Source: Candidatus Pacearchaeota archaeon
GTDB lineage: Archaea; Nanobdellota; Nanobdellia; Pacearchaeales; UBA284
Reading direction: 5' to 3'
DNA: 32,000 nt
Assembly: GCA_026016245.1 (NCBI GenBank)
Contig: CP061211.1
Coordinates: forward strand, 240,001-272,000
The notes under the pieces were generated by a model. That model worked only from the letters and a program-made list of their open reading frames with translations, did not search any database and was not told where the DNA came from. Position numbers and translations under genes: made by a program. This document shows, piece after piece, positions 3,066-27,671 of the stretch; within the stretch, counting starts at the first letter, position 1; every line of letters starts with the position of its first letter.

Positions 3066-3073
3066 TTATTTAA
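3066..3073 (+). promoter_or_regulatory. TATA box for fen (leaderless)
   Basis: TTATTTAA lies 22 nt upstream of the ATG at 3096. Confidence 0.5.
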
Positions 3074-3095
3074 GTTTCTTTTTCTCTTAATTTTT

Positions 3096-4330: not shown

Positions 4331-4386
4331 TTTTTCCTTTTTTTATGTTTTTATTTAGTATTTTAGATTTATAAATTTGTTTATTT

Positions 4387-8094: not shown

Positions 8095-8171
8095 TCTTAC
8101 CTCTTTTTCTTTTTTATTAAGTGAATATGTTTTTTAAAGTTTTGTTTTATTTTTAATTTTTAATTTTTTAT

Positions 8172-9944: not shown

Positions 9945-10004
9945 TTTTTTACCTCTTTTCCTTAATTGAGAAGAAATTACTTAATTTAAATTTTTTTATT
10001 TTTG

Positions 10005-10574: not shown

Positions 10575-10578
10575 TAAA

Positions 10579-11949
10579 TTATTTTGGGACATTCCATCTT
10601 CCTGGTATTTCCCATTCTGGTTCAGCAAAAGAAGCCATCCCATGACTCTTCTTGTAAACATCATAAATCTTGTAACATAATGCTGAGGCTGTTCGTTCTG
10701 CAAATTTTCTTATTATAGATTCCTCAAAATTATCTTTCTTGATCTTCCCTATTTCAAGTTCTTTTTTCTCTTTTTCTTTCTTCTTCTTTTCCTCCTTTTC
10801 TTTTTTTTCTGTGAAATGTTCTAAATCTTCTATTACCTGGGAAAGACTTTGTTCTGTTACAGTTTCTACTAAACTTAGGGCATCCTTAAAATCCTCTTTA
10901 TCTAGTTCCTTGTCCAAGACTTTTAACTCATCTTCATTTAGAGCATAAGCCTTGAAGTTAACTTCTGCTCTTCCGCCAAAGACATAATGGCCTTGAGGAG
11001 TTCTTGTTGGAGTGCCTCTAAAAACAAAATCAACAAAAACACAAGCATAATAATCTCTCTTAAGTTTTAAATTACGGAATTTTTTAGGCAGATTTCCAAG
11101 ATCAGCTTCTTTCTGCACATTAATCTTGTTCTTACCTATTATGGAAAGTTCAAGAAGAATAATATTAAAAGCTTTTACCAAAGAAGGCTCTCTTGTTTTT
11201 TCTTTCATCATTAATTCTTGTGCAGCTTTAAGGTAAGGTTTTGCCCATCTTGTATAAAGTTTTAAAGAATCCACCTGGCTTTTTACCCATGCTCTTTCTA
11301 CTTCAAATCTTTTTCTCAGCTCAGCTTCGCTCCTGTCTCTCCAGGCTAAAAATTCAGCTACTCTCGGTTTAAGGACTCTCTTGACTCTGTCATTCAAATC
11401 CATCTTATCAACTTCTTCTGGATTTTTAGCAATCATGAATGCATCAATAACAGTAGCATACATGAATTGTGAAGCTAGTCCTTTAATGCTGGTATTACCC
11501 CTTTGAATATCAACCTTATCCATCCATATCTGTTTCAGACCAAGAATGCCAGACTCTCTCTTTTTTTCATCTTTGCTTTTCGCAAGATCATATTGTTTAA
11601 GTCTTATTTCAAATTCTTTTAAATCATAAAATAGATTTACAAGACTCTTTAACATAACCCCAATTGTTTGCATTATTTTCATTCCTTCTTCTTGCATTAT
11701 TTTGGCTCTCTGACCTATTTCTGCAAAATAACCACTTCCTGGAGAAGCTGCAAAATTGTCCACTATTTTTTCAACATCAAAACCTAGCTCTTTCATGAAT
11801 TCAAGAATCCAGAAATAAACAGGCTCAAGCTGTTCAGCTGGGCTGTCATAAACAAGGCCATGTTCCCAGATTGGTTTTTCATATTTTGGGTTTACACTCT
11901 CTATAATTTCCTCTGTAGTTCTAGAGCCCTCTTTTTTTTCTTCTGTCAT
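10579..11949 (-). CDS. Uncharacterised 456-aa protein (orphan to my recognition)
   Basis: This long ORF has non-repetitive, globular-looking sequence (PVYFWILEFMKELGFDVEKIVDNF; GILGLKQIWMDKVDIQRGNTSIKGL; GHYVFGGRAEVNFKAYAL) plus a KEKEEKKKKEKEKKE linker. No NTP-binding or other motif recognised. Confidence 0.7.
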   Translation of the reverse strand: MTEEKKEGSRTTEEIIESVNPKYEKPIWEHGLVYDSPAEQLEPVYFWILEFMKELGFDVEKIVDNFAASPGSGYFAEIGQRAKIMQEEGMKIMQTIGVMLKSLVNLFYDLKEFEIRLKQYDLAKSKDEKKRESGILGLKQIWMDKVDIQRGNTSIKGLASQFMYATVIDAFMIAKNPEEVDKMDLNDRVKRVLKPRVAEFLAWRDRSEAELRKRFEVERAWVKSQVDSLKLYTRWAKPYLKAAQELMMKEKTREPSLVKAFNIILLELSIIGKNKINVQKEADLGNLPKKFRNLKLKRDYYACVFVDFVFRGTPTRTPQGHYVFGGRAEVNFKAYALNEDELKVLDKELDKEDFKDALSLVETVTEQSLSQVIEDLEHFTEKKEKEEKKKKEKEKKELEIGKIKKDNFEESIIRKFAERTASALCYKIYDVYKKSHGMASFAEPEWEIPGRWNVPK

Positions 11950-12354: not shown

Positions 12355-12819
12355 ATGCCAAAAAAGAAGGTGATGGAAAAAGGAGGGGGTGAGAAAAAAT
12401 TATTTCTCTTTCTAATAACTGTGTTCTTTATTTTTGCTCTTGATAGATACACTAAGTTATTATCACAATTTGTAAGTGGGTGTTTTATTTTTTGTATAAA
12501 ACAATCAGTTAATTATGGGGCTGCCTTCAGTCTTCTAAGTGGTTTTGAATGGACTAGAATTCTCTTAATAATCGTTGCTCTCCTGGTATTGTTTTTCACA
12601 GCTTTCTTTTATTTTCAAGATAAGAATTTCAATTATTTTCATATAGGCTTGATTTTATTATTTGCCGGAACACTAAGTAATCTTTTTGATAGAATATATT
12701 TTGGTTATGTTACTGACTTTTTGACTTTAAGTTTTATTCCAATTCCTGCTTTTAATTTAGCTGATGTGAGTAATGTCATTGGTGTTGTAATTCTGATATG
12801 GACATTAATAAAAAAATAA
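12355..12819 (+). CDS. lspA: Lipoprotein signal peptidase (signal peptidase II)
   Basis: LDRYTK, NYGAAFSL, LSNLFDRIYFGYVTDF and FNLADVSN correspond to the conserved LspA blocks (compare E. coli NYGAAFSF, GNLFDRL..G.VVD, FNLAD). It has four hydrophobic segments. Confidence 0.9.
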   Translation: MPKKKVMEKGGGEKKLFLFLITVFFIFALDRYTKLLSQFVSGCFIFCIKQSVNYGAAFSLLSGFEWTRILLIIVALLVLFFTAFFYFQDKNFNYFHIGLILLFAGTLSNLFDRIYFGYVTDFLTLSFIPIPAFNLADVSNVIGVVILIWTLIKK

Positions 12820-13651: not shown

Positions 13652-15331
13652 ATGATGAAAAAAAGTGAAAAAAAGATTCTTGCTTATGCTTTGGCAAATG
13701 CAATATCTCATAATGGTAAAGCGCAAGTAGGAGCAGTTTTACCAAAATTATTCCAGGAAGGATTAAAGAAAGAACAAGTTAAAGCCATAATACCAAAAAT
13801 TCAGAAAATAGTCAAACAAATCAATGCGCTAAGCAAGGAAGCTCAAGAAGAAAAATACCAAAAGCTCAGCAGTTTAGTAAAGAGAAAGGAAGAAAGAAAA
13901 GGCCTTCCAGAATTACCAAACGCAAAGCAAGGAAAAGTGGTAATGAGACTTGCTCCTTTCCCAAGCGGGCCTTTACATATTGGAAATGCCCGCCCATTCA
14001 TAGTGAATGATGAATATGTAAAGATGTATCAAGGCAAGCTTCTTTTTGTTATTGATGATACTATTGGAAGTGAAGAGAAAAGAATCATGCCTGAATCCTA
14101 CAAACTTATTCCTGAAGCACTTGATTGGTTGAAAATTAGGTATAAGAAGCCAATAATTTACAAATCTGACAGACTGAATCTTTATTATAGATATGCTGAA
14201 GAATTAATAAAGAAGGATAAAGCATATGTTTGTTTCTGTAGCTCTGATGTTTTACATGAGAATAGAGTCAAAAGAAAGGAATGTGAACATAGAAGAGCAA
14301 ATATTAAAGAAAATCTAAAAAATTGGAAGGAAATGTTGAATGGAAAATACAAACAAGGACAAGCTATTTTGAGAATAAAGACAAATATGCAACATAAGAA
14401 TCCTGCTTTTCGCGACCGTGTTTTGTTTAGGATTTCTGAAAGGGAGCATCCAAAAACAAAAAAGAAATATAAAGTTTGGCCTCTTCTTGAATTTTCGTGG
14501 GCTATAGACGACCATTTACTTGGAATAACACATATATTACGAGGAAAGGATTTGATGATGGAAAGTGAGATGGAAAAATATATTTGGGACATCTTTGGCT
14601 GGAAAAAGCCAATAATAATTCATACAGGTCTTATTAACATAGAAGGAGCAAAAATTTCCAAAAGTAAAAGTCAGAAAGAGATTGTTACAGGAAAATATTT
14701 TGGTTGGGATGATCCTAGGACATGGTCTTTACAATCATTAAGAAGAAAAGGTATTGAGGCAGAAGCAGTCAGGGCTTTCTGCTTAAGTTTGGGATTAACG
14801 CAGACAGAAGCAACAGTTCCAATTGAAAATCTTTACAAGGAAAATAAAAAAATAGTGGAAAAATCAGACCGTTATTTCTTTGTTGCCAATCCTACAAAAA
14901 TTAAGATAAAAAGTGCTTTAAAAATTAAGACAAAAATTTTGTTGCATCCAGATCATCCAAAAAGGGGCTGCAGAAATTTCTCAACATATCAGGATTTTTA
15001 TATAGCAAATGAGGATTATAAGAAAATCAGGAGAGGTTGCTTGTATAGGTTAATGAATTTGTTTAATTTTACAAAAAATACTTACTTCAAATTTATTTCC
15101 AAGGAGCATGAGCCAAAATTAAAAGCCAAGCTGATTCACTGGCTTCCTGTTCAAAAAGATCTTGTTCAAGCAGAGGTTTTGATGCCTGATGGAAACATTA
15201 TAAAAGGGCTTGCAGAGAATGGGATTAGGAAACTAAAGCCAGATACAATAATACAATTTGAACGCTTTGGTTTTTGCAGATTTGATGGGAAAGAGAAAAA
15301 TAAATTTTTATTTTGGTTTGGCCACAGATAA
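13652..15331 (+). CDS. gltX: Glutamyl-tRNA synthetase, archaeal/eukaryal type
   Basis: Class-I signatures are present: PFPSGPLHIGNAR (HIGH) and KISKSKS (KMSKS). An archaeal-GluRS N-terminal helical extension (ILAYALANAISHNGKAQVGAVLPKLF) is also present. The C-terminus is FERFGFCRFD. The track start 13649 is GTG; the first ATG is 13652. Confidence 0.92.
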   Translation: MMKKSEKKILAYALANAISHNGKAQVGAVLPKLFQEGLKKEQVKAIIPKIQKIVKQINALSKEAQEEKYQKLSSLVKRKEERKGLPELPNAKQGKVVMRLAPFPSGPLHIGNARPFIVNDEYVKMYQGKLLFVIDDTIGSEEKRIMPESYKLIPEALDWLKIRYKKPIIYKSDRLNLYYRYAEELIKKDKAYVCFCSSDVLHENRVKRKECEHRRANIKENLKNWKEMLNGKYKQGQAILRIKTNMQHKNPAFRDRVLFRISEREHPKTKKKYKVWPLLEFSWAIDDHLLGITHILRGKDLMMESEMEKYIWDIFGWKKPIIIHTGLINIEGAKISKSKSQKEIVTGKYFGWDDPRTWSLQSLRRKGIEAEAVRAFCLSLGLTQTEATVPIENLYKENKKIVEKSDRYFFVANPTKIKIKSALKIKTKILLHPDHPKRGCRNFSTYQDFYIANEDYKKIRRGCLYRLMNLFNFTKNTYFKFISKEHEPKLKAKLIHWLPVQKDLVQAEVLMPDGNIIKGLAENGIRKLKPDTIIQFERFGFCRFDGKEKNKFLFWFGHR

Positions 15332-15350
15332 ATATAAGATAGGGTCTAAG

Positions 15351-17414
15351 ATGACATATACTTTGATTATCGCAGAGAAACCAGCTGCTGCAATGCGAAT
15401 AGCTTATGCTCTCGCAGAGATTGCTCCTGTCAAGAGGAATATTGCTGGAGTGCCATTCTGGGAGATTAATAGAGGTAAGAAGAAATTCATTATAGTGAGT
15501 GCAGTGGGTCATTTGTTTGGCTTAGCTCAGAAGGGAACAAGCAAAGAGTGGCCTGTTTTTGATATTGAATGGCAAGCAAGTAAGGGTTTTGTTAGGAAAT
15601 ATATGAATGTTATCACGCATTTTGCCAAGGAAGCTGATAATTTCATTATTGCCTGTGATTATGATATTGAAGGCGAGCTTATTGGTTTTAATGCTCTCAG
15701 ATTTTTATGTAAAAAAGAAGACGCAAAAAGAATGAAATTCTCCACACTTACTAAGCCAGATCTAATCAAAAGTTATGAAGATATTATGGCTCATATAGAT
15801 TTTGGCCAGGTTTATGCTGGAGAAACCCGTCACTTTCTTGATTGGTATTATGGTATTAATTTAAGCAGGGCATTAATGCAGGCAATAAAAAAAGCTGGTT
15901 CATTTAGGATTCTTAGCATTGGTAGAGTTCAAGGACCTGCTTTAGCTTTGATTGTGGAAAAAGAAAAAAAGATTCAAGCATTCAAGCCAGAGCCTTATTG
16001 GCAAATTTTCCTTCTTGTGAAAAATAAACATGAAATTGAGGTTAAATATCCTAAAGATATTATAAAAGAAAAAGAACTTAAGATTTTTGAAAAATTAAAA
16101 GGAAAAACTGGAGAGGCTAGAACAACTAAAGAAGAAAAGAGCCTGAGACCTTTCCCGCCTTTTGATTTAACAAGTCTGCAGATAGAATCATACAAGTTTT
16201 TTGGCATAACTCCTGCACAAACCCTATCAATAGCACAAAAATTATATCTTCAAGGCCTGATTAGTTATCCAAGAACTAGCAGTCAGAAGTTGCCTTTTAC
16301 TATAGGATATAAAAGAATTTTAAATAAGTTAAACAGGCTTTTTCCTAAATTAACAGCTTATGCCAAGAGAGCCATGCCAATAGAAGGCAGAAAGACAGAT
16401 CCAGCACATCCTTCTATATTTCCTACAGGTGAAAAATCAAAAAAATTGAATCAAGCAGAAAAACAAGTTTATGATTTAATTGTTAAGAGATTTATTGCAT
16501 GCTTTTCTGAAGATGCTTTTATTGAGGAAAAGAAAATAAGTGTGAAGGTTGGAAAGCATGAATTTATTGTCCAAGGCAAGAAGATTCTGAAAAAAGAATG
16601 GTTAAATGTTTATCCAGCAAAAATTGATGTTAAGGAAATTCCTGATCTGGATGGCAAAGTAAAAGTTAAGGATGTGAGAATAGATGAAAAAGAAACACAG
16701 CCTCCAAGACGTTATAGTGCATCAAGTCTTGTCTATGAATTAGAGAAAAGAGGTTTAGGCACAAAAGGAACAAGAGCTATGATTGTTGATACGCTTTACA
16801 AAAGAGGCTATATAACAGGAAGACAGATTCAAGCAACAAAACTTGGAATGAATGTTGTTTCTGCCCTTGAAAAAAATAGCCCTTTGATTCTTGATGAAAA
16901 GCTGACAAGGAAATTTGAAGAAGAGATGGAAAAAATAAGAGGGGAAAAAACAAAAGAAAAAATAGTCAAAAAAGAAAAGAAAGTAATAGATGAAGCAAAA
17001 GATCTGTTAATAAAGATTTCAAAGCAATTTAAAGAGCATGAAAAGGAAATAGGAAAAGAGCTTCTTGCAGCACATAAAGAGATTGTAGAGGAACAAAGGA
17101 AAGCCAATACTTTATTCTTATGTCCTGTATGCAAGAAAGGTCATCTTGTTATGTTAAGGAGCAGAAGAGGCAAGAGATTTGCTGGTTGTGATGCTTACCC
17201 AAAATGTAAAAATACCTATGCTTTGCCACAATATGGCTTGATAAAATTAGCAGGTAAGAAATGTAAAGAATGTGACTTCCAACTTCTTCTGCTCATAAGG
17301 AAAAGTAAACCACCATGGGAATTTTGTTTTAATCCTGAATGTAAAACAAGAAAAGTAATAAAAAAAGTAAGGAGACAAAAACCAAAAGCCAGAAAGCCAA
17401 GAAAATTAAGTTAA
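15351..17414 (+). CDS. topA: DNA topoisomerase, type IA (TopA/Topo III-like) with C-terminal zinc ribbons
   Basis: Toprim signatures are TLIIAEKP and ACDYDIEGE. The active-site Tyr context is GLISYPRTSSQ. C-terminal zinc ribbons are CPVCKKG...CDAYPKCKN and CKECD...CFNPEC. The true start is MTYTLIIAEKP at 15351, because the track start 15258 overlaps gltX. Confidence 0.92.
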   Translation: MTYTLIIAEKPAAAMRIAYALAEIAPVKRNIAGVPFWEINRGKKKFIIVSAVGHLFGLAQKGTSKEWPVFDIEWQASKGFVRKYMNVITHFAKEADNFIIACDYDIEGELIGFNALRFLCKKEDAKRMKFSTLTKPDLIKSYEDIMAHIDFGQVYAGETRHFLDWYYGINLSRALMQAIKKAGSFRILSIGRVQGPALALIVEKEKKIQAFKPEPYWQIFLLVKNKHEIEVKYPKDIIKEKELKIFEKLKGKTGEARTTKEEKSLRPFPPFDLTSLQIESYKFFGITPAQTLSIAQKLYLQGLISYPRTSSQKLPFTIGYKRILNKLNRLFPKLTAYAKRAMPIEGRKTDPAHPSIFPTGEKSKKLNQAEKQVYDLIVKRFIACFSEDAFIEEKKISVKVGKHEFIVQGKKILKKEWLNVYPAKIDVKEIPDLDGKVKVKDVRIDEKETQPPRRYSASSLVYELEKRGLGTKGTRAMIVDTLYKRGYITGRQIQATKLGMNVVSALEKNSPLILDEKLTRKFEEEMEKIRGEKTKEKIVKKEKKVIDEAKDLLIKISKQFKEHEKEIGKELLAAHKEIVEEQRKANTLFLCPVCKKGHLVMLRSRRGKRFAGCDAYPKCKNTYALPQYGLIKLAGKKCKECDFQLLLLIRKSKPPWEFCFNPECKTRKVIKKVRRQKPKARKPRKLS

Positions 17415-18260
17415 TATGTGTTTTACATGATTACTTGTGCCTATAGGCACTTCTTTTTCAGGATAAACAATTATGCCTTTTTTTTGTTTTATTTCCATAG
17501 CAACAATTTTTCTCTTTATATTTTCACCCCTCATCTTTAAAATTTCTACTGCACTACCACGCCTGCCATTTCCATAAATTACATTATAAATTATTATGAT
17601 GCCATCTGAAAGAAAGCTTACAGCTTCAGCTCTTTCAACATAAACAGTTCCTATATGTGTTGGATTGCTTACCTCACGAATTAAAAAAGAGGTAATCTCT
17701 GTTTTTTCTAGATATCTAAACAACTGTTCCATATAAACCCTGAATCTTGCTTCTTCACCTGAAAAAGCAGAAGCAATAGATGTTAAGGAATCTATACAAA
17801 CAATATCTGGTTTAAAATCTGGGGGGAAAAATACTGGTTGTATATCAATAAGCAACTCTTTTTTAGCTTCGCTAAGCAAGGCTTCAACACTTCTTGAAAT
17901 ATCAAGGGCACTATATCTTTTTATCCTGAGCAAGTCCTTTTTCTCAAATTCATCTGGATGCCAACCAAAAGCACGCATATGTCTTCTTAATCTTGATTCT
18001 GGCTCTTCAAAACTCATATAAAGAACTTTTTTTCCTTGTTTGCAGGCATTATAAGCAAGTTGTAAACAAAAAATTGTTTTGCCACTACCAGGGCCACCTT
18101 CAACAAGAACGCTGCTACCAACAGGAACCCCTTTTTCTAAAAGTTTATCAAAACCCTGAATATTTGTTTTAAAATATTCCCTTGGCTTTAACTTTAATTC
18201 TCTAACTCTTTTAACAGCTTTAGCAGCTTTTTTCTTAGCTCTTCTTACCCCTTTTTTCAT
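17406..18260 (-). CDS. Single-domain KaiC/RecA-superfamily ATPase with basic N-terminal tail
   Basis: Walker A is VEGGPGSGKTIFCLQLA and Walker B-like is DIVCIDSL. The KaiC-like layout includes GFDKLLEKGVPVGSSVLV...YMSFEE. The N-terminus is MKKGVRRAKKKAAKAVKRVRE. Palindromic TTTATAAA (18283-18290) lies 22 nt upstream of the ATG at 18260. The stop overlaps the topA stop by 9 nt in convergent orientation. Confidence 0.8.
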   Translation of the reverse strand: MKKGVRRAKKKAAKAVKRVRELKLKPREYFKTNIQGFDKLLEKGVPVGSSVLVEGGPGSGKTIFCLQLAYNACKQGKKVLYMSFEEPESRLRRHMRAFGWHPDEFEKKDLLRIKRYSALDISRSVEALLSEAKKELLIDIQPVFFPPDFKPDIVCIDSLTSIASAFSGEEARFRVYMEQLFRYLEKTEITSFLIREVSNPTHIGTVYVERAEAVSFLSDGIIIIYNVIYGNGRRGSAVEILKMRGENIKRKIVAMEIKQKKGIIVYPEKEVPIGTSNHVKHILT

Positions 18261-18429
18261 TACTTAACTTAAATAAAATATATTTATAAACTTTTTTATA
18301 AAAACCCTTAGAACAAAATAAGGCAAAATAAGGAAAAAGAAAGATTTTTAAACCTATGAACAATCATATTTTTAAGCAAAATACTGAACAAAAGTTTGAA
18401 TGAAATATTAAACAAAATAATGTACTTAT

Positions 18430-18449
18430 GTTCATTCATATGATTGAAC
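18430..18449. promoter_or_regulatory. Near-perfect 20-bp palindrome, candidate operator upstream of the wHTH gene
   Basis: GTTCATTCATATGATTGAAC pairs at 9 of 10 positions around a central CATATG. It lies 29-48 nt upstream of the ATG at 18478, abutting the A/T-rich TATA-like AAAATAAATAA. A related half-site, GAACAATCATAT, occurs at about 18357. Confidence 0.4.
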
Positions 18450-18477
18450 ACAAAATAAATAACAATTAAAATGAAAG

Positions 18478-18699
18478 ATGAATAATAACCAAAAACATAT
18501 TAAGAAACTTAAGAAAGAATTTTTAAATTTTATTTCTAAAAATAATGTTGTTACCACATCTGAAATAGCTTCAAAATTTAATTTATCATGGAATACTGTT
18601 GAAAAATATCTGCTTGAGCTAACCATAGACAAGAAGGTTGAAAGGATAAAAAAATCAAGAACAAATTTATGGATGTTAAAAAAAATAACTAAAATCTAA
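18478..18699 (+). CDS. Small winged-helix-turn-helix DNA-binding protein (73 aa)
   Basis: VVTTSEIASKFNLSWNTVEKYLLELTIDKKVERIKKSRTNLW fits helix-turn-helix plus a beta-wing. It ends 3 nt before the giant ORF. Confidence 0.7.
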   Translation: MNNNQKHIKKLKKEFLNFISKNNVVTTSEIASKFNLSWNTVEKYLLELTIDKKVERIKKSRTNLWMLKKITKI

Positions 18700-18702
18700 A
18701 AA

Positions 18703-21700
18703 ATGAGTAAGAAAAGAGGTGAAATGACAAGCCAGAGAGAAAACAAAAAGAGGATGAATAAAAAGAGTGAGTTGAAGAGAATTATATTGCTAATAGCTAT
18801 AAGTCTATTATTCACAGTGTTAATTGTTAGTGCTAATAATTTTACTAATATAACTAATTTTACTGATAATAATCAATCTAACCAAACTCTGGATTTAGAA
18901 TGTCAGCAAGATTCTGATTGTGATGATAATAATGAAAGTACATTTGATTATTGCACTAATAACTCTTGTTATTATCAAGAAATTGAATGTATAAATGATA
19001 GTAATTGTGATGATAATAATAGTTTGACTTTTGACTACTGTATAAACAATTCTTGTTATTATGTTGAACCAGAATGTTTTACTGATGAAGATTGCAATGA
19101 CAACAACGAATCAACCACAGATTTATGTCAAGATTATAATTGTATTTATGAGATTAATGAAACAAACATAACAGCAGAAATTCTTGAGCTTGAGCAACAA
19201 GAAGCTAAAATAAATGAGAAAGTTAAATGGATAGTAAAAATAAAAGCCCAAACTTTAGAAGAAGCTATATTATTAATTCCTGAAGATGCTTTTATTCTTT
19301 CATCTGAAGAACAAGAACAAGTTTTCTTGATTGAGTATGAAACTCCTATGATAGAAATAGAAGAAGAAATAATAGAGCAAGAACAAGAAATAAAAAAAGA
19401 TGAGATGACTGGTCAGGTTATTAGTCAGGCAATTCAAGGAAAAATAATAAAAAGAGTTATTATTAGTAGCAATTTCTCAGGTCATTATCATAATGTTAAG
19501 GCTTTTACAATTATTAATTTAGAAAATGAAATTCAAGAATCTCAGTTTAAGGTTTATCATCTTATTAGTAATGAAAAAGTTGATATTACAGATAAGTCAG
19601 AATATAATGTGACTATTAATAAGATTGAAGAAAATAACATCAATACTTCAACTAACTTATCAAATTATCAGATTTCTTGGCTAGTTCCTGAACTTAGTGA
19701 GCAGATTTTTGAGATAACTGCTGGTGGAGAAGGTCCAGTCATTCTCTCAACTCCTGGAGAAATAGATTCTTGTCAAACCTTAGATACAGCAGGAACATAT
19801 ACTTTAAACCAAAACGTTTCAGCAGATACTACTTGCTTTAACATAACCTCTGATAATGTTACTCTTGACTGTGCTGGTTATACTATAAATTATTCTGCTA
19901 CAGGAACTGGCTATGCTGTGAATAATTCTGTTGGTTATAGTAACATAACAATTAAAAATTGTTTTATAAACAATGTATCAACAAGTTATTCATCTAGTTA
20001 TGCTATATATTTCCAAGGCTCAAGCACAGACCCATGTTCAGGAAATGTTATAGATAATAACACTATTTTAACTTCAGGAACAAGCAGTCATGGGATTTAT
20101 TTATATGATTATGTGAACAAGACAAATATAACAAACAATAATATAACTACCACTGGGTCAAGCAGTAAGGGAATTTATTTAAATAGTAAAGTAAACAGCA
20201 GTATTATCGCCAATAACACATTAAAAACATCTCAAACCAGTTCTTATGGGATTGATGTTTATATGTATTCTGGGGAAAATATTATTTATAACAATAATAT
20301 AACAACAACTGGATCCGGCGGGTATGGAATGAGAATATATCAATATTGTGACAAAAATAATATAACAAACAATAATATAACCACCACAAGCACTGGAATT
20401 GGCATTTTTATGTATTCTGCTGATTTTAATAATATAAAAAATAATTCTTTTGTTACTGGAAGCAGTGGAGTATATGTGTATAATAGTGCAAGCAATGTTT
20501 TTTATAAGAATAATATAACAACTTCTGGCTCTGATAGCTATGGAATTTATCTTTATCAGTCTAGCACAAAATATAATAATTTTACAGATAACAGAATAAC
20601 TACTTCTGGAGCAAGTGCTCATGGGGTCTATGTTTCATCAGCAAATGATAATGCAATATTTAATTCATCAATTGAAACAACAAACACTGGAAATGCTATT
20701 TATTATGCTGGAGCCAGTAATGCGACAATAGAAAATACAGTTATAAATTCTACAAATGCTGGAACAAAGGACATTTACTTTGTAAGCTCAAGCAAAGGAA
20801 ACCTCAACTTGACAAACTGCACCCTAAACAAAACAGATGTCTCATTCCATTCAAGTTCAACAGCCAATCTAAATATCCATTATTATCTTGATGCTCAAGT
20901 TAATTACACAAACGGAAATCCAGTCCAAGATGCAAATGTAAGTGGTTATGATGTGGATAATGAGTTAGCTTTTACACAATTGACAGACAGTAATGGATTG
21001 ATAGCAAGACAAACTCTTCTTGAATACATGCAAAACTTTACAGATAAGTATTATAAAACAAAATATACAATTAATGCAACTTATCAAATAGGTTATACTA
21101 ATGATTCAGAGCAGGTTAATCTGACAGCAAACAATATAACAGATGATAATACTCAGATTATCTTGACTATTGGTACTACCTCTCCAACAACAAACTTAGT
21201 TTCTCCTGACAATGGAAATGTGAGTGATTTTTCCACGATTAATTTTACCTGCAATGCGACTGATGATTTAATGCTTAAAAATATATCTTTATGGCACAAC
21301 ATTACAGGAGCATGGGGTCTTAATCAAACTTTTTTTGGCTTAAATATTTCTTCTCAAACCTGTTCGCAGGTCTGGGGTTTTGACTGCGGTGCAGGACCTC
21401 CAGAAGCAGGAGACAACACATTTGATGATTGTACTTATAGTGGTTCAGGTGGTGGTCTTATTTCTGTTAAAGAAATCTATTTGAATGCAACAAAAATTGC
21501 TCCAGGAGATTCTTTGAATGCTACATGTTATTTTGAAAGTTATGAGGGTTATGAAGATGAATTTGATTCTGGGATATTCTATTACAATGGAAGTGGATGG
21601 TATGAATTATGGAGTGGAGACCCTTCTCCTTGCAGTGGACAGCCTTGTTATGTTAATACTTCAACAGCCTTTACAGCTAACAACACAGTAGGAACCCACT

Positions 21701-24700
21701 GGATAAGATGTTCAATCCAGTATACTGATGCAGGAACTGACATCACAGATTATTGTGCAGTAGGTGATGCTGGTTACCAAGACAATGATGACCTTAGTTT
21801 TACAGTATCTGACTCTATTGGCTCAGCAACTGCAACAGCTAGTTTTATCTTAAATGTTCCTGACGGCCATCATATCTGGAATTGTCAAGCTTATAACAAC
21901 AGAAGTAAGGATGATTTTGCTGATTCTAATTATACGTTGACTGTTCAAGAGCCCCCAAATGTTACTCTTAACCTGCCTGTTGACGGTAATTTAAGTGCAA
22001 GCAATAATATAACTTTCAATTGTTCAGCTACTGATAACAGTGGATTAAAAAATGTAACTCTCTGGGGAAATTGGAGTGGTGGATGGCATGCAAACACTAC
22101 AAATAATTTTTCAGGACTAAGTAACTCAACTGCTTTTAATTTAAATGTTTCAGAGGGTGCTTATTTATGGAATTGTTTAGTTTATGATATAAATGATTAC
22201 TCAGCTTTTGCCTCAAGTAATTTTAGTTTGACTGTAAATACTCCTCCAACAACTCCGACAAACATAACTTGTAATGGCCAGATTTGTTCTCTGAATAATT
22301 CTTTTAATAATATCATAGAAATAAATTGTTCTGGCTCAACTGATCCTAGTGGAGATGTTATTACCTATCTTATAGAAGCTAATTACACTTCTGGAGGAGC
22401 AGGAGATGCTGAGATTTCCCTTGGACCTTATGTGTATGAAAATACTGCTGGTCATGGAACACCTGTATGGTCAAGAAAATCAGAATGGGACCCTGTAACG
22501 TCCAGTTCATATTTTTATCCAACCTATGGTGATTTAGATGGAGACGGAGACTCTGACTTTATGTATGTTGCAAATAGCAATCAACTTAAAGCATATGAAA
22601 ATACTGGTTCTGCTGAAAGTCCTTCGTGGTCTTATAATGCTGGATGGAGTTTCTCAAATAGTGTTCCTACAGGAGAAGGAACAACAGTATTTAGTATAGA
22701 CCTTGGAGATGTTGAAGGTGACGGAGATTTAGATCTTTTATTTGCTAAACATAATAATATACTATTTTATGAAAATACAGCTGGAGCAGGTAATGACCCC
22801 TCCTGGAGTTATAATTCAGGCTGGACTGCAAGTCTTGGTAGTGCTACAAATATAGGAGCAAGGCTTGTTGATATTGATAATGACGGAGATATGGATATTT
22901 TCTACCATGATTGGAGTGGAAATAATTATTTCTATGAAAATACTGGCAGTCAAACTTGGTCAAGAAAATCAGAATGGGAAACTGGGTTTGTTAGTGGAGG
23001 GGCAAATTCACAATTTGGAGACTTTTATGATATTGATGGTGATGGGGATTATGATTATTTTGGTTATGAAAGCAGTTCTTATAAAGATGCTTATGAAAAT
23101 ACTGGGAGTGCATCTAGTCCTTCTTGGAGTGCTAATTCAGATTGGGGTTCAGCTATTCCAAGTTCATCAAGTTCTATTTATCCTGCTTTAGTTGACCTTG
23201 ATAATGATGGGAGTAGTTCTGGATGGCAGTTGATAGGAAATCATTCTGAAACATCTGTCTTTGAGTGGAGCATAACTGATGTGAATGAGCAGACAAATAT
23301 TAATCTAAGATGCAGGGCAGTTGACGAGCAAGGAAGTAATACTAATTCAAGTGCTTACAGTCCTGAGACTAATTTAACAATAGACCATACTGCACCTGTT
23401 TTTACTAATGTTAGTTACCAACCCAGTACAGACATTGGACTAGACCCTGATGTTCAGGTTAATGTTACTGTTAATGTAACTGACCCTGTTAATAATAATG
23501 TGAACAGCACAGTAAGTGCTGTTATATTACAATATAAGTCACAGTATGATTCTGACTTTAGTAATACAAGCATGAGTTATAATGTTTCTAATGAATTATA
23601 TGAAGGTAACTTTACTCCAAGTTTTGAGGCTAATTACACAATAAGAATATGGGCAAATGACTCTGCTCTTACATATGCTAACACTAATACCTCATCTAAT
23701 AGCACCTTAGAAATATTTTATGACTGGGTCTGGAATCACACACCTTATGACCTTGGAACAGTAGCAGGAATTCAAAAATCAACACAGACTGTGGGTTATA
23801 TTTATATAACTAACAATGCTGATTCTAATTTACATTATGACTTAAGTCATAATTATATTCTTGGAGCTGATTACATGAATTTCTCAGATGATTTGTTTAC
23901 TCTAACTCCTGGACAGAGCAAGAACATAACTGTAAACGCGACTTTTACTCCGGCAGCTGGTGAGTCTAATGTTAAAATAACAATAGATGCTACAACCCCT
24001 AATGCAGATCCTTCTGAAAATCATACTAATATCACTCTTGCTTCTTATGCAGGAGGCCCTTATTTAGATGTTGTGATAGATATTTATAATTCAATTATAG
24101 GACAAAGCAATTGGATGAATTTATCTGCTTACATTAGAAACATAGGTAATGAAACTTCACAAAACACAACCTATAACTGGACTCTTGCTAGTGGAATTAC
24201 AGTTAATAGTGGTGATAAAAATGCAGTTATAGGAAACATAACTCCAAATTCTCAGAACAGAACAAACTTGAATGTGACAGTAAGTGCCTCAACATCTTAT
24301 GGTAATAATAACATGAGTTTATTTGCTTCTGGCCAGGGTTCTAACACAAATGATACTAATCAGATAACTGTTTTTGTTCAGTGTAATTCAGGAGATGGTG
24401 TCTGCGGTGCAGGCTGTATAGATGCTGAAGGAGCACCTAACTATGATTCTGATTGTGTAGAACAGCCGTCTGGAGGCGGCGGAGGAGGCGGAGGAGTAAG
24501 TGGCCAAGCCAGAGAAAAATTCCTAACAACATCTGAAACAATAGAAATAGTAAGAGGCCAGACAACTGAATTTACTATTGAAGTAAAAAATGAATTTGAT
24601 GATGTTATAAAGGATATAACAATTGAGGTTGAAGGAATAATGTCAACTTATTTAAGTCTTTCACCTGCACATATAGATTCTCTTAATCCAGGAGAAAGCA

Positions 24701-25755
24701 AAGTTGTTATTGTCAAGCTAACATCTCCTAAATATTTCACAGCAGGAATATATGATCTTGTATTTAATATTAAAGGCCAGCTAGCAGTAGGAACAGCCTT
24801 TATTCAGATAAAAGAAAGAAGAATAGTAAATTTAATTGTTCATGAAATCAGCGAAGAAGAAGCAAGAGAAAAGCTTAATCAGGCTAAGAAAATACTAGAA
24901 CAAATGAAGCAATATAAATTAAAAACAGAAGAATTTGAAATCCTGTATGCAGAAATGGAAACAGCATTTAATAACAGAGAATTCACAAAAGTTAATAATC
25001 TTTACAATGAGTTTTATGATTCTTCTTCAATGGCAATAGAATCTTATAATCTCATTAATAAAATAAAACAAGCAATGGAGCAAGCAAATAGTAAGGGTAT
25101 TGAGACTCCAAACACCTTAAGGCTTGTTCAGTTAGCAGAATCAGCTTTAGAAAGAGCTGACTGGGAAACAGCTTTAAGCAGAGCAAAAGAAGCTGAACTT
25201 ACTTTTGCTGTAGAAACAAAAGGAGAATTTTCTTTAGGCTACTTTTTAAAAGAAAACTGGTGGAAAGTTTTAATTATGGTTTTATGTACTGGTTTTGTCG
25301 TCTTTTTAATTTATTCGTGGACAAAGTATGAAATAATTAACAAAAAAGTTAAAAATCTTGAAAGAGAAGAGCACATCCTTCTTGGTTTAATGAAAGTTGT
25401 TCAAAAAGATTGCTTTGAGCTAGGAAAAATGTCAATGACAGAATATCAAGTGGCAATTCAACAGTATGAAAACAAACTAAGCCAAGTTGTGCAAAGGTTA
25501 ATAGAACTAGAGACAATGAAAATTAACTTCTTTAAATTTAGAAAAGAAAATATAAGATTAAGCACAGAAAGAAAAAGACTGCTTGAATTGATAAAAGAAA
25601 CCCAAAGATTATATTTTGAGAAAGGCAAACTTGAATCAAGAATCTATGAAAACAAATTAAAGAGCTATGCGACCAAGATGATAGAGGTTGAAGAAAGGTT
25701 AGCATTACTTGAAGCTGAAAAAGCACTGAAAAGAACAAAGGTTTTGGAAAGATAA
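18703..25755 (+). CDS. Giant (2,350 aa) mosaic cell-surface glycoprotein with type-I membrane topology
   Basis: It is a single uninterrupted ORF. Domain order, part 1: N-terminal anchor/signal LKRIILLIAISLLFTVLIVSA; 3 Cys-repeats; parallel beta-helix coils; Ig-like modules. Part 2: five FG-GAP/VCBS blades; CARDB-like modules (RNIGNETSQNTTYNWTL; TTEFTIEVKNEFDDVIKDITIEVEG); a G8 tract. Part 3: helical stalk; TM WWKVLIMVLCTGFVVFLIYSW; 145-aa coiled-coil tail. N-x-S/T sequons are very dense. Confidence 0.9.
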   Translation: MSKKRGEMTSQRENKKRMNKKSELKRIILLIAISLLFTVLIVSANNFTNITNFTDNNQSNQTLDLECQQDSDCDDNNESTFDYCTNNSCYYQEIECINDSNCDDNNSLTFDYCINNSCYYVEPECFTDEDCNDNNESTTDLCQDYNCIYEINETNITAEILELEQQEAKINEKVKWIVKIKAQTLEEAILLIPEDAFILSSEEQEQVFLIEYETPMIEIEEEIIEQEQEIKKDEMTGQVISQAIQGKIIKRVIISSNFSGHYHNVKAFTIINLENEIQESQFKVYHLISNEKVDITDKSEYNVTINKIEENNINTSTNLSNYQISWLVPELSEQIFEITAGGEGPVILSTPGEIDSCQTLDTAGTYTLNQNVSADTTCFNITSDNVTLDCAGYTINYSATGTGYAVNNSVGYSNITIKNCFINNVSTSYSSSYAIYFQGSSTDPCSGNVIDNNTILTSGTSSHGIYLYDYVNKTNITNNNITTTGSSSKGIYLNSKVNSSIIANNTLKTSQTSSYGIDVYMYSGENIIYNNNITTTGSGGYGMRIYQYCDKNNITNNNITTTSTGIGIFMYSADFNNIKNNSFVTGSSGVYVYNSASNVFYKNNITTSGSDSYGIYLYQSSTKYNNFTDNRITTSGASAHGVYVSSANDNAIFNSSIETTNTGNAIYYAGASNATIENTVINSTNAGTKDIYFVSSSKGNLNLTNCTLNKTDVSFHSSSTANLNIHYYLDAQVNYTNGNPVQDANVSGYDVDNELAFTQLTDSNGLIARQTLLEYMQNFTDKYYKTKYTINATYQIGYTNDSEQVNLTANNITDDNTQIILTIGTTSPTTNLVSPDNGNVSDFSTINFTCNATDDLMLKNISLWHNITGAWGLNQTFFGLNISSQTCSQVWGFDCGAGPPEAGDNTFDDCTYSGSGGGLISVKEIYLNATKIAPGDSLNATCYFESYEGYEDEFDSGIFYYNGSGWYELWSGDPSPCSGQPCYVNTSTAFTANNTVGTHWIRCSIQYTDAGTDITDYCAVGDAGYQDNDDLSFTVSDSIGSATATASFILNVPDGHHIWNCQAYNNRSKDDFADSNYTLTVQEPPNVTLNLPVDGNLSASNNITFNCSATDNSGLKNVTLWGNWSGGWHANTTNNFSGLSNSTAFNLNVSEGAYLWNCLVYDINDYSAFASSNFSLTVNTPPTTPTNITCNGQICSLNNSFNNIIEINCSGSTDPSGDVITYLIEANYTSGGAGDAEISLGPYVYENTAGHGTPVWSRKSEWDPVTSSSYFYPTYGDLDGDGDSDFMYVANSNQLKAYENTGSAESPSWSYNAGWSFSNSVPTGEGTTVFSIDLGDVEGDGDLDLLFAKHNNILFYENTAGAGNDPSWSYNSGWTASLGSATNIGARLVDIDNDGDMDIFYHDWSGNNYFYENTGSQTWSRKSEWETGFVSGGANSQFGDFYDIDGDGDYDYFGYESSSYKDAYENTGSASSPSWSANSDWGSAIPSSSSSIYPALVDLDNDGSSSGWQLIGNHSETSVFEWSITDVNEQTNINLRCRAVDEQGSNTNSSAYSPETNLTIDHTAPVFTNVSYQPSTDIGLDPDVQVNVTVNVTDPVNNNVNSTVSAVILQYKSQYDSDFSNTSMSYNVSNELYEGNFTPSFEANYTIRIWANDSALTYANTNTSSNSTLEIFYDWVWNHTPYDLGTVAGIQKSTQTVGYIYITNNADSNLHYDLSHNYILGADYMNFSDDLFTLTPGQSKNITVNATFTPAAGESNVKITIDATTPNADPSENHTNITLASYAGGPYLDVVIDIYNSIIGQSNWMNLSAYIRNIGNETSQNTTYNWTLASGITVNSGDKNAVIGNITPNSQNRTNLNVTVSASTSYGNNNMSLFASGQGSNTNDTNQITVFVQCNSGDGVCGAGCIDAEGAPNYDSDCVEQPSGGGGGGGGVSGQAREKFLTTSETIEIVRGQTTEFTIEVKNEFDDVIKDITIEVEGIMSTYLSLSPAHIDSLNPGESKVVIVKLTSPKYFTAGIYDLVFNIKGQLAVGTAFIQIKERRIVNLIVHEISEEEAREKLNQAKKILEQMKQYKLKTEEFEILYAEMETAFNNREFTKVNNLYNEFYDSSSMAIESYNLINKIKQAMEQANSKGIETPNTLRLVQLAESALERADWETALSRAKEAELTFAVETKGEFSLGYFLKENWWKVLIMVLCTGFVVFLIYSWTKYEIINKKVKNLEREEHILLGLMKVVQKDCFELGKMSMTEYQVAIQQYENKLSQVVQRLIELETMKINFFKFRKENIRLSTERKRLLELIKETQRLYFEKGKLESRIYENKLKSYATKMIEVEERLALLEAEKALKRTKVLER
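18901..19161 (+). repeat. Three tandem 87-nt (29-aa) four-cysteine repeats inside the giant ORF
   Basis: The repeats are CQQDSDCDDNNESTFDYCTNNSCYYQEIE, CINDSNCDDNNSLTFDYCINNSCYYVEPE and CFTDEDCNDNNESTTDLCQDYNCIYEINE. All have C-x5-C-x10-C-x4-C spacing. TGT codons fall at 18901, 18988 and 19075. Confidence 0.9.
20041..20795 (+). repeat. About 10 parallel beta-helix (PbH1/CASH-like) coil repeats of 22-27 aa
   Basis: The motif recurs periodically: NITNNNITTTGSSSKGIYLNS, IIYNNNITTTGSGGYGMRIYQ, ITNNNITTTSTGIGIFMYS, FYKNNITTSGSDSYGIYLYQ, FTDNRITTSGASAHGVYVSS, IENTVINSTNAGTKDIYFVS. The DNA-level recurrence is aataatataac(a/t)ac. Confidence 0.8.
22432..23220 (+). repeat. Five FG-GAP/VCBS-type propeller blades (YENTG ... 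DxDxDGDxD)
   Basis: Five units each start with YENT(G/A). They end with Ca-binding-like loops GDLDGDGDSDF, GDVEGDGDLDLL, VDIDNDGDMDIF, YDIDGDGDYDYF and VDLDNDGSS. An internal (S)PSWS / WSRKSEW motif recurs. Confidence 0.8.
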
Positions 25756-25762
25756 GGAAAAG

Positions 25763-26728
25763 ATGGTAAAAAAAAATAATTTTATTATAATAATATTAAT
25801 GCTGTCGGCTTTATTAATAGCTAGTATATTTATCAATAATAATTTTGGTAATGCTGTTATATATTCAAATGAATCTATAGAAGCAAAAGAATCTCTTGAA
25901 AATGCAAGAGCTGATATGCAAGAAATGATTGAAATGGGTTTTAATGTTATTAGAGTTAATGACACTCTTATTGTGGCTGAACAAATTTATCTTGCACAGC
26001 TTGCTTTAGAAGAAAAAAAGAAAAGAGCTAATTATGAAACTGTTCTTGAAAAATGTGCTGAGATAAGGAAAATAAAAGAAAAGGCATTTCAAGCTTATGA
26101 TGAGCTTAAAGTTCTTGAAGTAAAAATTAATAAAACAACCCAAGACAAGGATGTTAATTTAACTGAAGTTATTGCTGTTTTTGAACAAGCAAAACAAGAA
26201 TTTATAGATGAGAGGTATGAGCAGTGTTTAATTTTAATTGAAAAAACTTATGAAAAAATTGATAGAGCAGAATCAGAAGCTGCCAGGTCAAGGGTGTTTT
26301 ATATAGCTGCAAGCCGCACAATAGGCGGGTTTTTTGAGAGAAATTGGAAAATAATTATAACTGTTTTGGCTGTAATAGGATTAGCATATTATATAACAAG
26401 AAAAAAAATTGAAAGATATTTATTAAGAAGGAAAATGAAAAAACTTGAGCTTGAAAAGAAAGTTTTAAGAGGGCTTATAGCAAAAACCCAAAAAGATTAT
26501 TTTGAAAAAGGGCTTCTTAGTGAGGGAAGCTATAGAATAAAAATAAAAAAATTCGGGGAACTTATCCGGGATATTGACAGACAAATTCCTTTAATAAAAG
26601 AAGAACTTGAAAAAATAAAAAAACAAAAGCCAGAAAAACAACCAAGAAGAATTCAAAAAGAAGTTAGAAGAATTTCTGTCCCTAAACCTCCTATTAAACC
26701 AAAAGCAAGAAAGAAAATTAAAAAATAA
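25763..26728 (+). CDS. Type-I membrane protein, paralog of the stalk-TM-tail region of the giant protein
   Basis: Layout is signal anchor FIIIILMLSALLIASIF, helical ectodomain, TM WKIIITVLAVIGLAYYI, then a charged tail. GGFFERNWKIIITVL aligns with GYFLKENWWKVLIMVL of the giant protein. The tail LRGLIAKTQKDYFEKGLLSEGSYRIKIKKF aligns with both tail motifs of the giant protein. It starts 7 nt after the giant ORF stop. Confidence 0.8.
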   Translation: MVKKNNFIIIILMLSALLIASIFINNNFGNAVIYSNESIEAKESLENARADMQEMIEMGFNVIRVNDTLIVAEQIYLAQLALEEKKKRANYETVLEKCAEIRKIKEKAFQAYDELKVLEVKINKTTQDKDVNLTEVIAVFEQAKQEFIDERYEQCLILIEKTYEKIDRAESEAARSRVFYIAASRTIGGFFERNWKIIITVLAVIGLAYYITRKKIERYLLRRKMKKLELEKKVLRGLIAKTQKDYFEKGLLSEGSYRIKIKKFGELIRDIDRQIPLIKEELEKIKKQKPEKQPRRIQKEVRRISVPKPPIKPKARKKIKK

Positions 26729-26729
26729 A

Positions 26730-27671
26730 TTACCTTACAAATATTACTTTTTCTGGTTTTGTAATCAATCCTTCTGACTCAGGGCATACAAAATAAACTC
26801 CCTGATTCAAGCCGTTCATACCTATCTTATCTGTTGATCTTAGTGTCTTTACTTTTCTTCCATACACATCAAAAAGATGTACTTTGTCAACTTTCCTGTT
26901 CAATCTTACTATATCTGTGGTAATATTTCCCTTTACTAGAGAAAATGGCTCTTTAACTCTGTTCTCAAGATCTTCTTTTACTCCAGTTAATTCAAAGACT
27001 AATGAATCAGCAATTAGTTGTGCATCTCCGAGTGCTTTATCAACTGTCCAATCAAGGTATTGCATAACAGGGCCTAATGTAAATTCTGATCTAATTGAAC
27101 CTTCTGGTTGTGGGTCTATGTTTTCAGCATTAAAAGCATGGTAAAAATGATTTCCTAGATTTACATTCAATTCAGAAGTGTCTTTCAAAGAAGGGTTTTT
27201 GAAATTATATGATATTACCCTAACTAAAGAATCTGTTGTTCCCATCTTGTTTATAATTTTTCCTATATTTGCTGCGTGCACTGGCAATGAATCATTAGGA
27301 TTGTTTAAGAATACTTCCCAAGCTCTTATAAATTCCTCATTATCAAAAGGAATCTTCGCAATTGTTTGATATATTTTGCCATCTCTATTTGCTTTTGCTA
27401 GATAATTAAGAGTGTCTCCTGGTCGTGGTTGATGAATTTGCCACTGACCATATGGAAGATGGCTTTTTCCTTCCTCATTAAATGTGCCTTGAGTATAATC
27501 AGGATATCCTGGTATCCAAAGTTTTGATGTATCTCCCTGAAGTGCTTGAACTGAATCTGTAGAAGGATTTGCATAGAATTCTAAAGCTCTAGTTCTTGGT
27601 TTATCAATTATTACTGGCATTGAAGGTTGACCACTTGTCGCCAGATATAAAATTATTTGACCAACTACCAT
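26730..27671 (-). CDS. Uncharacterised protein with C-terminal T9SS-type (Por_Secre_tail-like) beta-sandwich sorting-domain signature
   Basis: The C-terminus is VDKVHLFDVYGRKVKTLRSTDKIGMNGLNQGVYFVCPESEGLITKPEKVIFVR. This matches the pattern (v-x-iyD-x-x-GrkV ... l-x-x-L-x-x-GvYfv ... K-x-v) of Bacteroidota type-A CTDs. The N-terminal 240 aa are unrecognised. There is no clear signal peptide (MVVGQIILYLATSGQPS). Confidence 0.55.
   Translation of the reverse strand: MVVGQIILYLATSGQPSMPVIIDKPRTRALEFYANPSTDSVQALQGDTSKLWIPGYPDYTQGTFNEEGKSHLPYGQWQIHQPRPGDTLNYLAKANRDGKIYQTIAKIPFDNEEFIRAWEVFLNNPNDSLPVHAANIGKIINKMGTTDSLVRVISYNFKNPSLKDTSELNVNLGNHFYHAFNAENIDPQPEGSIRSEFTLGPVMQYLDWTVDKALGDAQLIADSLVFELTGVKEDLENRVKEPFSLVKGNITTDIVRLNRKVDKVHLFDVYGRKVKTLRSTDKIGMNGLNQGVYFVCPESEGLITKPEKVIFVR

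Follow-up and report, generated by a model that had tools for sequence, protein, structure and literature searches.

A giant mosaic surface protein, its short membrane-anchored paralog and a KaiC-like ATPase recur as genomic neighbours across DPANN archaea

Which genes belong together around a giant mosaic surface protein of a Candidatus Pacearchaeota archaeon, and what might they do together? The locus that raises this question occupies positions 18261-26728 of a 32,000-nucleotide (nt) stretch of contig CP061211.1, which we call the window, and carries three open reading frames (ORFs) on the plus strand: a tiny regulator (ORF1), the giant (ORF2) and a short partner of the giant (ORF3). A sequence-only reading of the locus had taken these three genes for a self-contained attachment or contact-sensing module. 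The gene layout that it described was confirmed throughout, with gaps of 3 nt between ORF1 and the giant gene and of 7 nt between the giant gene and ORF3, behind a 217-bp AT-rich divergent spacer. The spacer is common to this operon and to a minus-strand gene for a KaiC-like ATPase (17406-18260). This ATPase is the best conserved partner of the cluster, and it falls outside the bounds of 18261-26728 that had been drawn for the unit. Overall, we read the locus, with about as much doubt as confidence, as one instance of a module found repeatedly among DPANN archaea, which consists of an N-glycosylated type-I giant, a short paralog (S-type protein, here ORF3) and a KaiC-like ATPase, often joined by a fourth family (O4) and a tiny regulator, and in which the ATPase would be coupled to a membrane platform.

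To define what is conserved, neighbourhoods were sampled from three starting proteins, namely the S-type protein, the giants and the ATPase. A giant gene followed by an S-type gene was found in 21 non-redundant fetched loci and in one further place represented without DNA, in metagenome-assembled genomes (MAGs) of Pace-, Woese-, Aenigmat-, Micr- and Nanoarchaeota, and the gap or overlap between the two genes is typically a few bases. Of the wHTH-giant-paralog synteny that the sequence-only reading had proposed to look for in relatives, the giant-paralog part is kept in five DPANN lineages. In most loci with sufficient contig a KaiC-like gene lies within ~1 kb of the cluster, on either side and on either strand, and the encoded ATPases match the one in the window at phmmer E-values of 1e-98 to 1e-136. 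The other flanking genes are unrelated between loci. Sampling from the ATPase side recovered an S-type gene in two of three places. The window itself has all parts of the core, with a complete base at the C-terminus of the giant, the S-type gene 7 nt downstream and the KaiC-like gene adjacent. The KaiC-like ATPase, and not the winged helix-turn-helix (wHTH) protein encoded by ORF1, is the most conserved partner of the module.

The ATPase consists of a single KaiC-type domain of the RecA superfamily with a basic N-terminal extension. It scores 161.7 bits against the KaiC profile PF06745 (cut-off 26.6), its best match in the PDB is KaiC (8zn5, E 6.5e-40), and it has a Walker A motif (GGPGSGKT, amino acid (aa) 55), a catalytic EE pair (aa 85-86) and a Walker B motif (IVCIDS, aa 153). 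It falls under every NCBIfam equivalog cut-off, with 103 against 408 bits for KaiC, 91 against 249 for KaiC_arch_3 and 52 against 215 for ArlH. With one domain and 284 aa it is not a circadian KaiC (103 vs 408 and 77 vs 546 bits; NF006799 and TIGR02655), nor is it an ArlH/FlaH (52.4 vs 215 bits), and no arl genes (ArlI, ArlJ) were found in the window or in the related loci. Members of this ATPase subfamily are 65-77% identical across DPANN phyla and carry generic names only in their sources, some of them 'RAD55 family ATPase'. In the window, a topoisomerase I gene (15258-17414, plus strand) and the ATPase gene overlap at their 3' ends; in locus L031 the topoisomerase I gene (7629-9887) is divergent from the ATPase gene (10001-11053), and in L001 topoisomerase I lies within 10 kb. 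This adjacency could point to a DNA-related role of the ATPase, or could merely reflect close genome relatedness.

The giant consists of a variable head (aa 1-1550) on a constant base of ~800 aa. The block at aa 1553-2345 is common to ~16 homologs as a single unit and is 30-34% identical over ~800 aa to the proteins P0122-P0132. In the fetched loci, each large ORF that precedes an S-type gene ends in the constant base: a hidden Markov model (HMM) built from alignment A2 recovers it in full (positions 2-810, E 1e-183 to 0) in proteins of 1035-3181 aa, and the giant of the window matches the model from position 1 to position 808 at E=0. An AlphaFold model of aa 1553-2350, made with nine aligned relatives (pLDDT 74.9), places three beta-sandwiches, a disordered Cys/Gly hinge, a fourth beta-sandwich, helices, a long transmembrane (TM) helix and two hairpins in that order. 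The fourth sandwich coincides with a match to NPCBM_assoc/NEW3 (PF10633, aa 1951-2023) just under the cut-off (23.8 vs 24.4 bits), and relatives carry PF10633 annotations. Foldseek searches with the base returned only generic tandem immunoglobulin (Ig)/MG domains, with integrin chains among the matches. Every feature that had been listed for the giant from sequence (Cys repeats, beta-helix, FG-GAP, Ig-like modules, G8 hinge, helical stalk, TM helix and helical tail) is present; the stalk, given there as roughly 190 aa, measures ~130-140 aa. Tandem giants occur in locus L007 (3-2144 and 2159-10126) and in the P0147 place, with complete or near-complete bases of the giant's type (G-type) and a single S-type gene downstream.

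The base of the giant and ORF3 are related. ORF3 aa 30-304 aligns with giant aa 2043-2293 (BLASTP E 3e-10), and the tail motif is found in two copies in the giant. In the AlphaFold model of ORF3 (pLDDT 86.8) the protein is all-helical, and five ectodomain helices run into the TM helix and then into a hairpin. The S-type family comprises proteins of ~290 aa, with more than 120 matches at E<=1e-35 in a word-indexed search and 1609 clusters at E<=1e-3 in a profile search of 1.84 billion representatives. Matches with a named source come from Pace-, Woese-, Aenigm-, Micr- or Nanoarchaeota, and the family has no Pfam or NCBIfam match. Its best conserved part is the hairpin (consensus LIxKTQKDYFEKGxxSExxYxIKxKKFxELIRDIDRQIPLLKEEL), where Q243, Y246, F247, R269, D270, R273 and E280 of ORF3 are near-invariant. 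The tail motif 'YFEKGxLSxxxY' was also considered as a SHOCT domain (PF09851), which was rejected, as neither tail matches Pfam even at E<=10. S- and G-type modules form separate old clades, with mean BLASTP scores of 157 bits among S, 204 among G and 37 between the two. Therefore the paralogy predates the divergence of these lineages, and a recent local duplication of the tail was rejected. The earlier idea of a tail duplicated in a short partner is correct for the shared stalk, TM helix and tail; the duplication is ancient rather than local. Several database proteins (P0128, P0266, P0281, P0294, P0297, P0304) look like fusions of G- and S-type gene calls. A DPANN-specific 'alpha helical protein' cluster typified by NEQ484 has been described (PMC6393860), and it might correspond to the S-type or the O4 family.

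The orientation of both proteins in the membrane is supported by two lines of evidence. The 15 residues flanking the S-type TM helix contain on average 2.6 K+R before it and 5.5 after it, and the density of NxS/T sequons in S-type proteins is 2.07 per 100 aa of ectodomain vs 0.24 in the tail. A sequon at ORF3 N132 is kept in 28 of 32 S-type members. In the giant, the 107 sequons (~49 expected from composition) all fall within aa 46-1883, and none is found in the NEW3-like domain, the stalk or the tail. The positive-inside rule and the sequon distribution thus agree with the cytoplasmic tail proposed in the sequence-only reading. The stretch of the giant nearest the membrane (aa 1944-2184, nt 24532-25254) has zero sequons, against 7.9 per 100 aa in the Ig-like legs just above it and a conserved one in the S-type ectodomain. 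This sequon-free stretch may mark a buried protein-protein interface.

Above the base, the giant changes from relative to relative. No full-length ortholog was found, and the best matches are 30-34% identical over ~34% of the query. When 119 homologs were mapped along the giant, ~100 shared the beta-helix only, aa 1-300 and the FG-GAP region were common to almost none, and aa ~800-1230 was covered by only 4-20. The heads of relatives carry beta-helix, LamG, RCC1 and FG-GAP modules. In the window, the N-terminus has 10 K/R among its first 25 residues, followed by a hydrophobic segment (aa 22-48). The beta-helix scores 60.3 bits against PF13229 (cut-off 25.9) in three stretches at aa 435-605; the NosD family matches at E 4.4e-13 and 48.6 bits, below its cut-off of 300 bits, so the giant is not a NosD. 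The FG-GAP/VCBS profile PF13517 scores 48.7 bits (cut-off 26.9) in four stretches, and this region holds five YENTG/A blade motifs (aa 1245-1464) and four DxDxDG calcium-type loops, to aa ~1500. The figure of ~10 beta-helix coils and the paired Ig-like modules placed at aa 800-1230 hold as rough estimates made from sequence. These data support an adhesin-like ectodomain that is heavily decorated with sequons. In a Woesearchaeota MAG (loci L005/L006) we observed a diversity-generating retroelement (bAvd and reverse transcriptase, 3253-4999) a few kb upstream of the giant/S-type pair; it adjoins a target-like gene (432-3173) for a beta-helix/FGE-sulfatase-fold surface protein.

At the other end of the operon, ORF1 is a predicted winged-helix DNA-binding protein, with 30.6 bits against FaeA-like PF04703 (cut-off 20.7) and a marginal 22.0 against HTH_24 PF13412 (cut-off 21.9). 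phmmer found no homolog of it in any other fetched locus, and the wHTH was rejected as a conserved family of the module. In four other loci a tiny DNA-binding ORF nevertheless immediately precedes the giant. Two of these have helix-turn-helix (HTH) ORFs in the position of the wHTH (L020, L024), and two have near-identical ribbon-helix-helix-like ORFs with sub-threshold Pfam matches (L012 4205-4351, 48 aa; L030 5835-6011, 58 aa). The pattern suggests that non-orthologous genes have replaced one another at a conserved position: the dedicated tiny regulator of the sequence-only reading recurs as a position, and not as a family. Upstream of ORF1 in the shared spacer is a near-perfect palindrome (TGTTCATTCATATGATTGAACA), self-complementary with 2 mismatches and unique in the window (0 matches expected, 100 shuffles), with a related copy at 18355-18368. 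It would be a candidate operator, placed in a promoter region that the operon and the divergent ATPase gene have in common. A scan for bacterial promoters and terminators was uninformative, the organism being an archaeon.

The fourth family, O4, comprises proteins of 130-170 aa with a conserved cytoplasmic N-terminus (motif FLSMDLAERMIRIEQRV), two TM segments, a 'TGNVV' loop and no Pfam match. It is encoded beside the S-type gene in ~10 loci, usually between the S-type and ATPase genes; L012 and L020 differ, with O4 after the S-type gene and the KaiC-like gene ahead of the giant. No O4 was found in the window at E<1 among ORFs of at least 50 aa. Related membrane ORFs of 145-155 aa were seen between the divergent KaiC-like gene and the giant gene in L011 (5441-5908) and L017 (3286-3723). 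Their 'LTGNVV' motif resembles the O4 loop, and the O4 profile misses them. L017 (JAIPGS010000062.1) is labelled Candidatus Babeliales bacterium yet carries the archaeal giant/S-type/KaiC-like cluster, and is probably a mis-binned DPANN contig.

How might these parts work together? The homologous helical ectodomains and TM helices of the giant base and the S-type protein would bring these two together in a membrane platform, which would display interchangeable adhesin heads toward a host or surface. The near-invariant cytoplasmic hairpins would dock a KaiC-like hexamer, and the ATPase may regulate or energise display, assembly or contact signalling, with the wHTH at the palindrome in the shared divergent promoter setting the expression of both arms. 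KaiC-family ATPases are predicted regulators that are genomically associated with archaeal surface structures (PMC4858521), and nanohaloarchaeal giant surface proteins have a cytoplasmic ATPase domain and a further ATPase gene next door (PMC10266531). Because of these two precedents, a coupling of giant and S-type protein to the ATPase is plausible. Contact sensing, as in the sequence-only reading, is something that we infer, and the direction of signalling or work is not decidable from sequence. The boldest form of the proposal is a single transmembrane machine across much of DPANN, in which a KaiC-like hexamer is clamped to the hairpins of a platform with interchangeable giant heads (base, S-type protein and ATPase, with O4 where present). 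We put this forward tentatively, and think it is rather more likely to fail than to hold.

Several known systems resemble parts of this arrangement. In Sulfolobales the slaA gene, for a large variable glycoprotein, precedes slaB, which encodes a small helical stalk protein anchored in the membrane, and the order of the corresponding genes is the same here. SlaB, however, is not paralogous to the C-terminus of SlaA, SlaA has no TM helix, for neither is a conserved cytoplasmic domain or an associated ATPase known, and no similarity to SlaA or SlaB was found in Pfam, NCBIfam, or PDB sequence and fold searches. ArlH pairs with the coiled-coil membrane scaffold ArlX, which is anchored at its N-terminus. 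As in that pair, the ATPase here would probably dock on a monotopic membrane protein whose cytoplasmic domain is helical; in contrast to it, ArlI/ArlJ and type IV pilus genes are absent, the ATPase scores 52 vs 215 bits on the ArlH model, and the partner has a type-I topology and a helical ectodomain. Archaeal KaiC-like regulators share with the locus a single-domain KaiC-like ATPase encoded beside genes for surface structures (PMC4858521).

The SPEARE proteins of Nanohaloarchaeota have a Sec signal, a giant Ig-rich ectodomain, a TM segment, a cytoplasmic VirB4/TraG-like ATPase domain and a coiled coil (PMC10266531, citing Hamm et al. 2019). They and the protein of the window are giants of DPANN episymbionts with a Sec-type N-terminus, an Ig-rich ectodomain, a TM segment, a cytoplasmic coiled coil, a link to a P-loop ATPase and a proposed role in host interaction. 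In SPEARE the ATPase domain lies within the giant, whereas here the ATPase is a separate KaiC-like protein and the tail of the giant is modelled as two helical hairpins; Pfam and NCBIfam found no VirB4/TraG-like or other P-loop domain in the giant, a short anchor paralog is encoded downstream, and no sequence similarity was detected. Nanobdella aerobiophila has pectin-lyase-like and Ig-like N-glycoproteins with a C-terminal TM helix and a proposed role in attachment (bioRxiv 10.1101/2023.10.27.564410). Compared by description only, these share with the giant the beta-helix and Ig-like folds, dozens of sequons and the C-terminal TM helix, and no constant base, paralog partner or ATPase link is described for them. 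As an analogy, integrin alpha chains also combine an FG-GAP propeller head, Ig-like legs, one TM helix, a cytoplasmic tail and a second type-I chain; the propeller of the giant is a putative one, predicted from blade motifs. The FG-GAP head is not constant here, the partner is a stalk paralog instead of a beta chain, and the tails are long helical hairpins. The resemblance implies no homology.

Some observations weigh against a recurring adhesin-ATPase module. In L005/L006 no KaiC-like gene lies within 10 kb of the giant/S-type pair, the ATPase being ~15 genes away on the same contig, and L032 has the ATPase with no S-type or giant gene within 10 kb. Five loci carry S-type and KaiC-like genes without a giant (L001, L019, L021, L026 and L027, in housekeeping contexts), so the core may serve a function unrelated to adhesion. 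The fold of ORF3 gave no informative match in the PDB (Foldseek), the position of the ATPase next to topoisomerase I in the window and in L031, together with its sometimes RAD55-like name, makes a DNA-related role possible, and all data are MAG-derived. A rival reading is an S-layer-type coat, in which the G-type protein is the main glycoprotein of the coat, the S-type protein a SlaB-like anchoring stalk, and the KaiC-like gene co-regulated or a mere neighbour with no physical coupling. Such a coat accounts for a large variable glycoprotein and a small helical membrane-anchored partner in one operon, as in slaA-slaB, for the Ig-like legs of the base, for S-type genes in housekeeping contexts, and for the fact that DPANN S-layer candidates are Ig-rich glycoproteins. 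We nevertheless consider it unlikely. Heads differ radically among close relatives and giants occur in tandem, which suits an adhesin more than a protein that forms a lattice; a pure anchor would have no use for long near-invariant cytoplasmic hairpins, and no search found similarity to SlaA, SlaB or proposed DPANN S-layer proteins.

In another reading the giant is an ordinary stand-alone adhesin with functionally unrelated neighbours, the ATPase being a RadA/Rad55-type repair paralog and the wHTH an unrelated regulator, which is in keeping with the generic RAD55 names, with topoisomerase I, RadB and FEN1-like genes nearby in the window, and with L032. The adjacency of S-type or giant genes to the ATPase in five phylum-level lineages and four relative orientations, where all other neighbours change, is hard to explain otherwise than by selection in small, shuffled genomes, and leaves this reading with a small share of our belief. 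Smaller still is the share that we would give to a SPEARE-type conduit, a channel or 'straw' to the host made by giant and S-type protein, with the ATPase powering the transport of effectors or nutrients. The locus likewise joins a giant that has a TM helix and a helical tail to a P-loop ATPase gene nearby, and nanohaloarchaeal giants pair an Ig-rich ectodomain, a TM segment and a VirB4/TraG-like ATPase domain with an ATPase gene directly downstream (PMC10266531); but giant and S-type protein have one TM helix each, the window encodes no polytopic channel component, the ATPase is of KaiC/RecA and not VirB4/FtsK-like type, and the giant has no ATPase domain inside it. Finally, a metagenome assembly and an ORF with beta-helix (coil-period DNA repeats of 78 nt) and FG-GAP (blade-period) repeats could together produce a chimera. 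Internal DNA repeats in the giant ORF are short (<=85 nt) and mostly 60-80% identical, with one 28-nt pair at 93%, and no long near-identical repeats were found within it, which makes a repeat-driven chimera unlikely. Many independent assemblies show this combination of head and base with the same neighbours, and sequences identical to the giant, ORF3 and the ATPase are each on record on a 710-kb contig of a Candidatus Pacearchaeota MAG. The chimera was rejected, and we regard an artefact as very improbable.

Table 1. Coordinates of the module genes, of the parts of the giant and ORF3, and of O4 genes in other loci (nucleotide positions refer to the window unless a locus is named).
Feature	Residues (aa)	Nucleotides	Strand	Remarks
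KaiC-like ATPase gene	284 aa	17406-18260	-	443 nt upstream of giant, opposite strand
Divergent intergenic spacer (promoter region)		18261-18477	.	217 bp; 18.9% GC vs 32.4% in the window
Near-perfect palindrome		18429-18450	.	22 bp, 28 nt upstream of wHTH start codon
ORF1, predicted wHTH	73 aa	18478-18699	+	
ORF2, giant	2350 aa	18703-25755	+	
Giant, basic N-terminus and hydrophobic signal/anchor	1-48	18703-18846	+	Kyte-Doolittle segment aa 22-48
Giant, three 29-aa four-Cys repeats	67-153	18901-19161	+	Cys positions, aligned repeats
Giant, acidic E/Q-rich linker	154-240	19162-19422	+	36% E+D+Q
Giant, right-handed parallel beta-helix (PbH1/NosD-like)	~345-760	19735-20982	+	Pfam Beta_helix E 2.3e-16
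Giant, Ig-like modules and Cys-rich insertion	~800-1230	21100-22392	+	Repeated NxT-rich modules in translation
Giant, FG-GAP/VCBS blades	~1240-1520	22420-23262	+	Pfam FG-GAP_3 E 1.2e-12, 4 stretches
Giant, G-type base	1553-2348	23359-25746	+	~800 aa; homolog block, alignment A2 HMM, AlphaFold
Base, three beta-sandwich domains	~1566-1895			
Base, Cys/Gly hinge with G8 run	1896-1943			G8 at aa 1924-1931
Base, NEW3/CARDB-like beta-sandwich	~1944-2047			
Base, helical ectodomain	2051-2184			
Base, TM helix	2185-2208			
Base, two cytoplasmic helical hairpin repeats	2209-2348			
ORF3, S-type	321 aa	25763-26728	+	
ORF3, signal-like N-terminus	1-29			
ORF3, five-helix ectodomain	36-193			
ORF3, TM helix	~195-218			
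ORF3, one cytoplasmic hairpin	219-287			
ORF3, basic C-terminal tail				
O4, L001		10910-11359		
O4, L012		10918-11436		
O4, L019		3247-3756		
O4, L020		6932-7429		
O4, L026		3102-3608		
O4, L027		1519-2025		
O4, L028		154-660		
O4, L005		11001-11402	opposite	
O4, L021		10831-11217	opposite	

Around the locus, the window carries archaeal genes for GluRS, topoisomerase I, RadB and TrmB, and a FEN1-like gene is also near. It encodes in addition a bacterial-type signal peptidase II (LspA, Peptidase_A8, E 7e-24; 12355-12819, plus strand) in an archaeal genome. Convergent with ORF3 is a 313-aa ORF (26730-27671, minus strand) with a weak match, below cut-off, to a type IX secretion system (T9SS) Por_Secre_tail domain (E 5e-4); it has no obvious signal peptide, and a T9SS-like sorting domain is odd for an archaeon. 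Membership in a known anti-phage defence system was rejected, as PADLOC profiles gave weak generic P-loop/HTH matches only among the module proteins, and neither the S-type protein nor the base had a match.

Giant mosaic glycosylated surface proteins are already well known in DPANN. The base, the short paralog, the linkage to a KaiC-like ATPase and the recurrent tiny regulators are undescribed in Pfam, NCBIfam and the literature searched, a scope that does not include the work of Makarova et al. (2017, mBio) on archaeal KaiC-like ATPases; within that scope, the sequence-only reading was right in finding no match to any described system. The means by which DPANN archaea recognise their hosts and stay attached to them are a central open question, and most of their conserved lineage-specific genes are without an assigned function. 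The present analysis turns an odd giant gene into a defined and testable module, with profile models that can be used on any DPANN genome, a short list of invariant cytoplasmic residues and the concrete prediction that the hairpins dock the ATPase. It also offers an explanation for the mosaic 'giant proteins' of DPANN genomes, as head-swapping on a fixed chassis. If the transmembrane machine proposed above is real, it would be an apparatus, driven by ATP or gated by phosphorylation, for attaching to a host or signalling contact, and a core, unrecognised piece of the episymbiotic lifestyle of these minimal cells.

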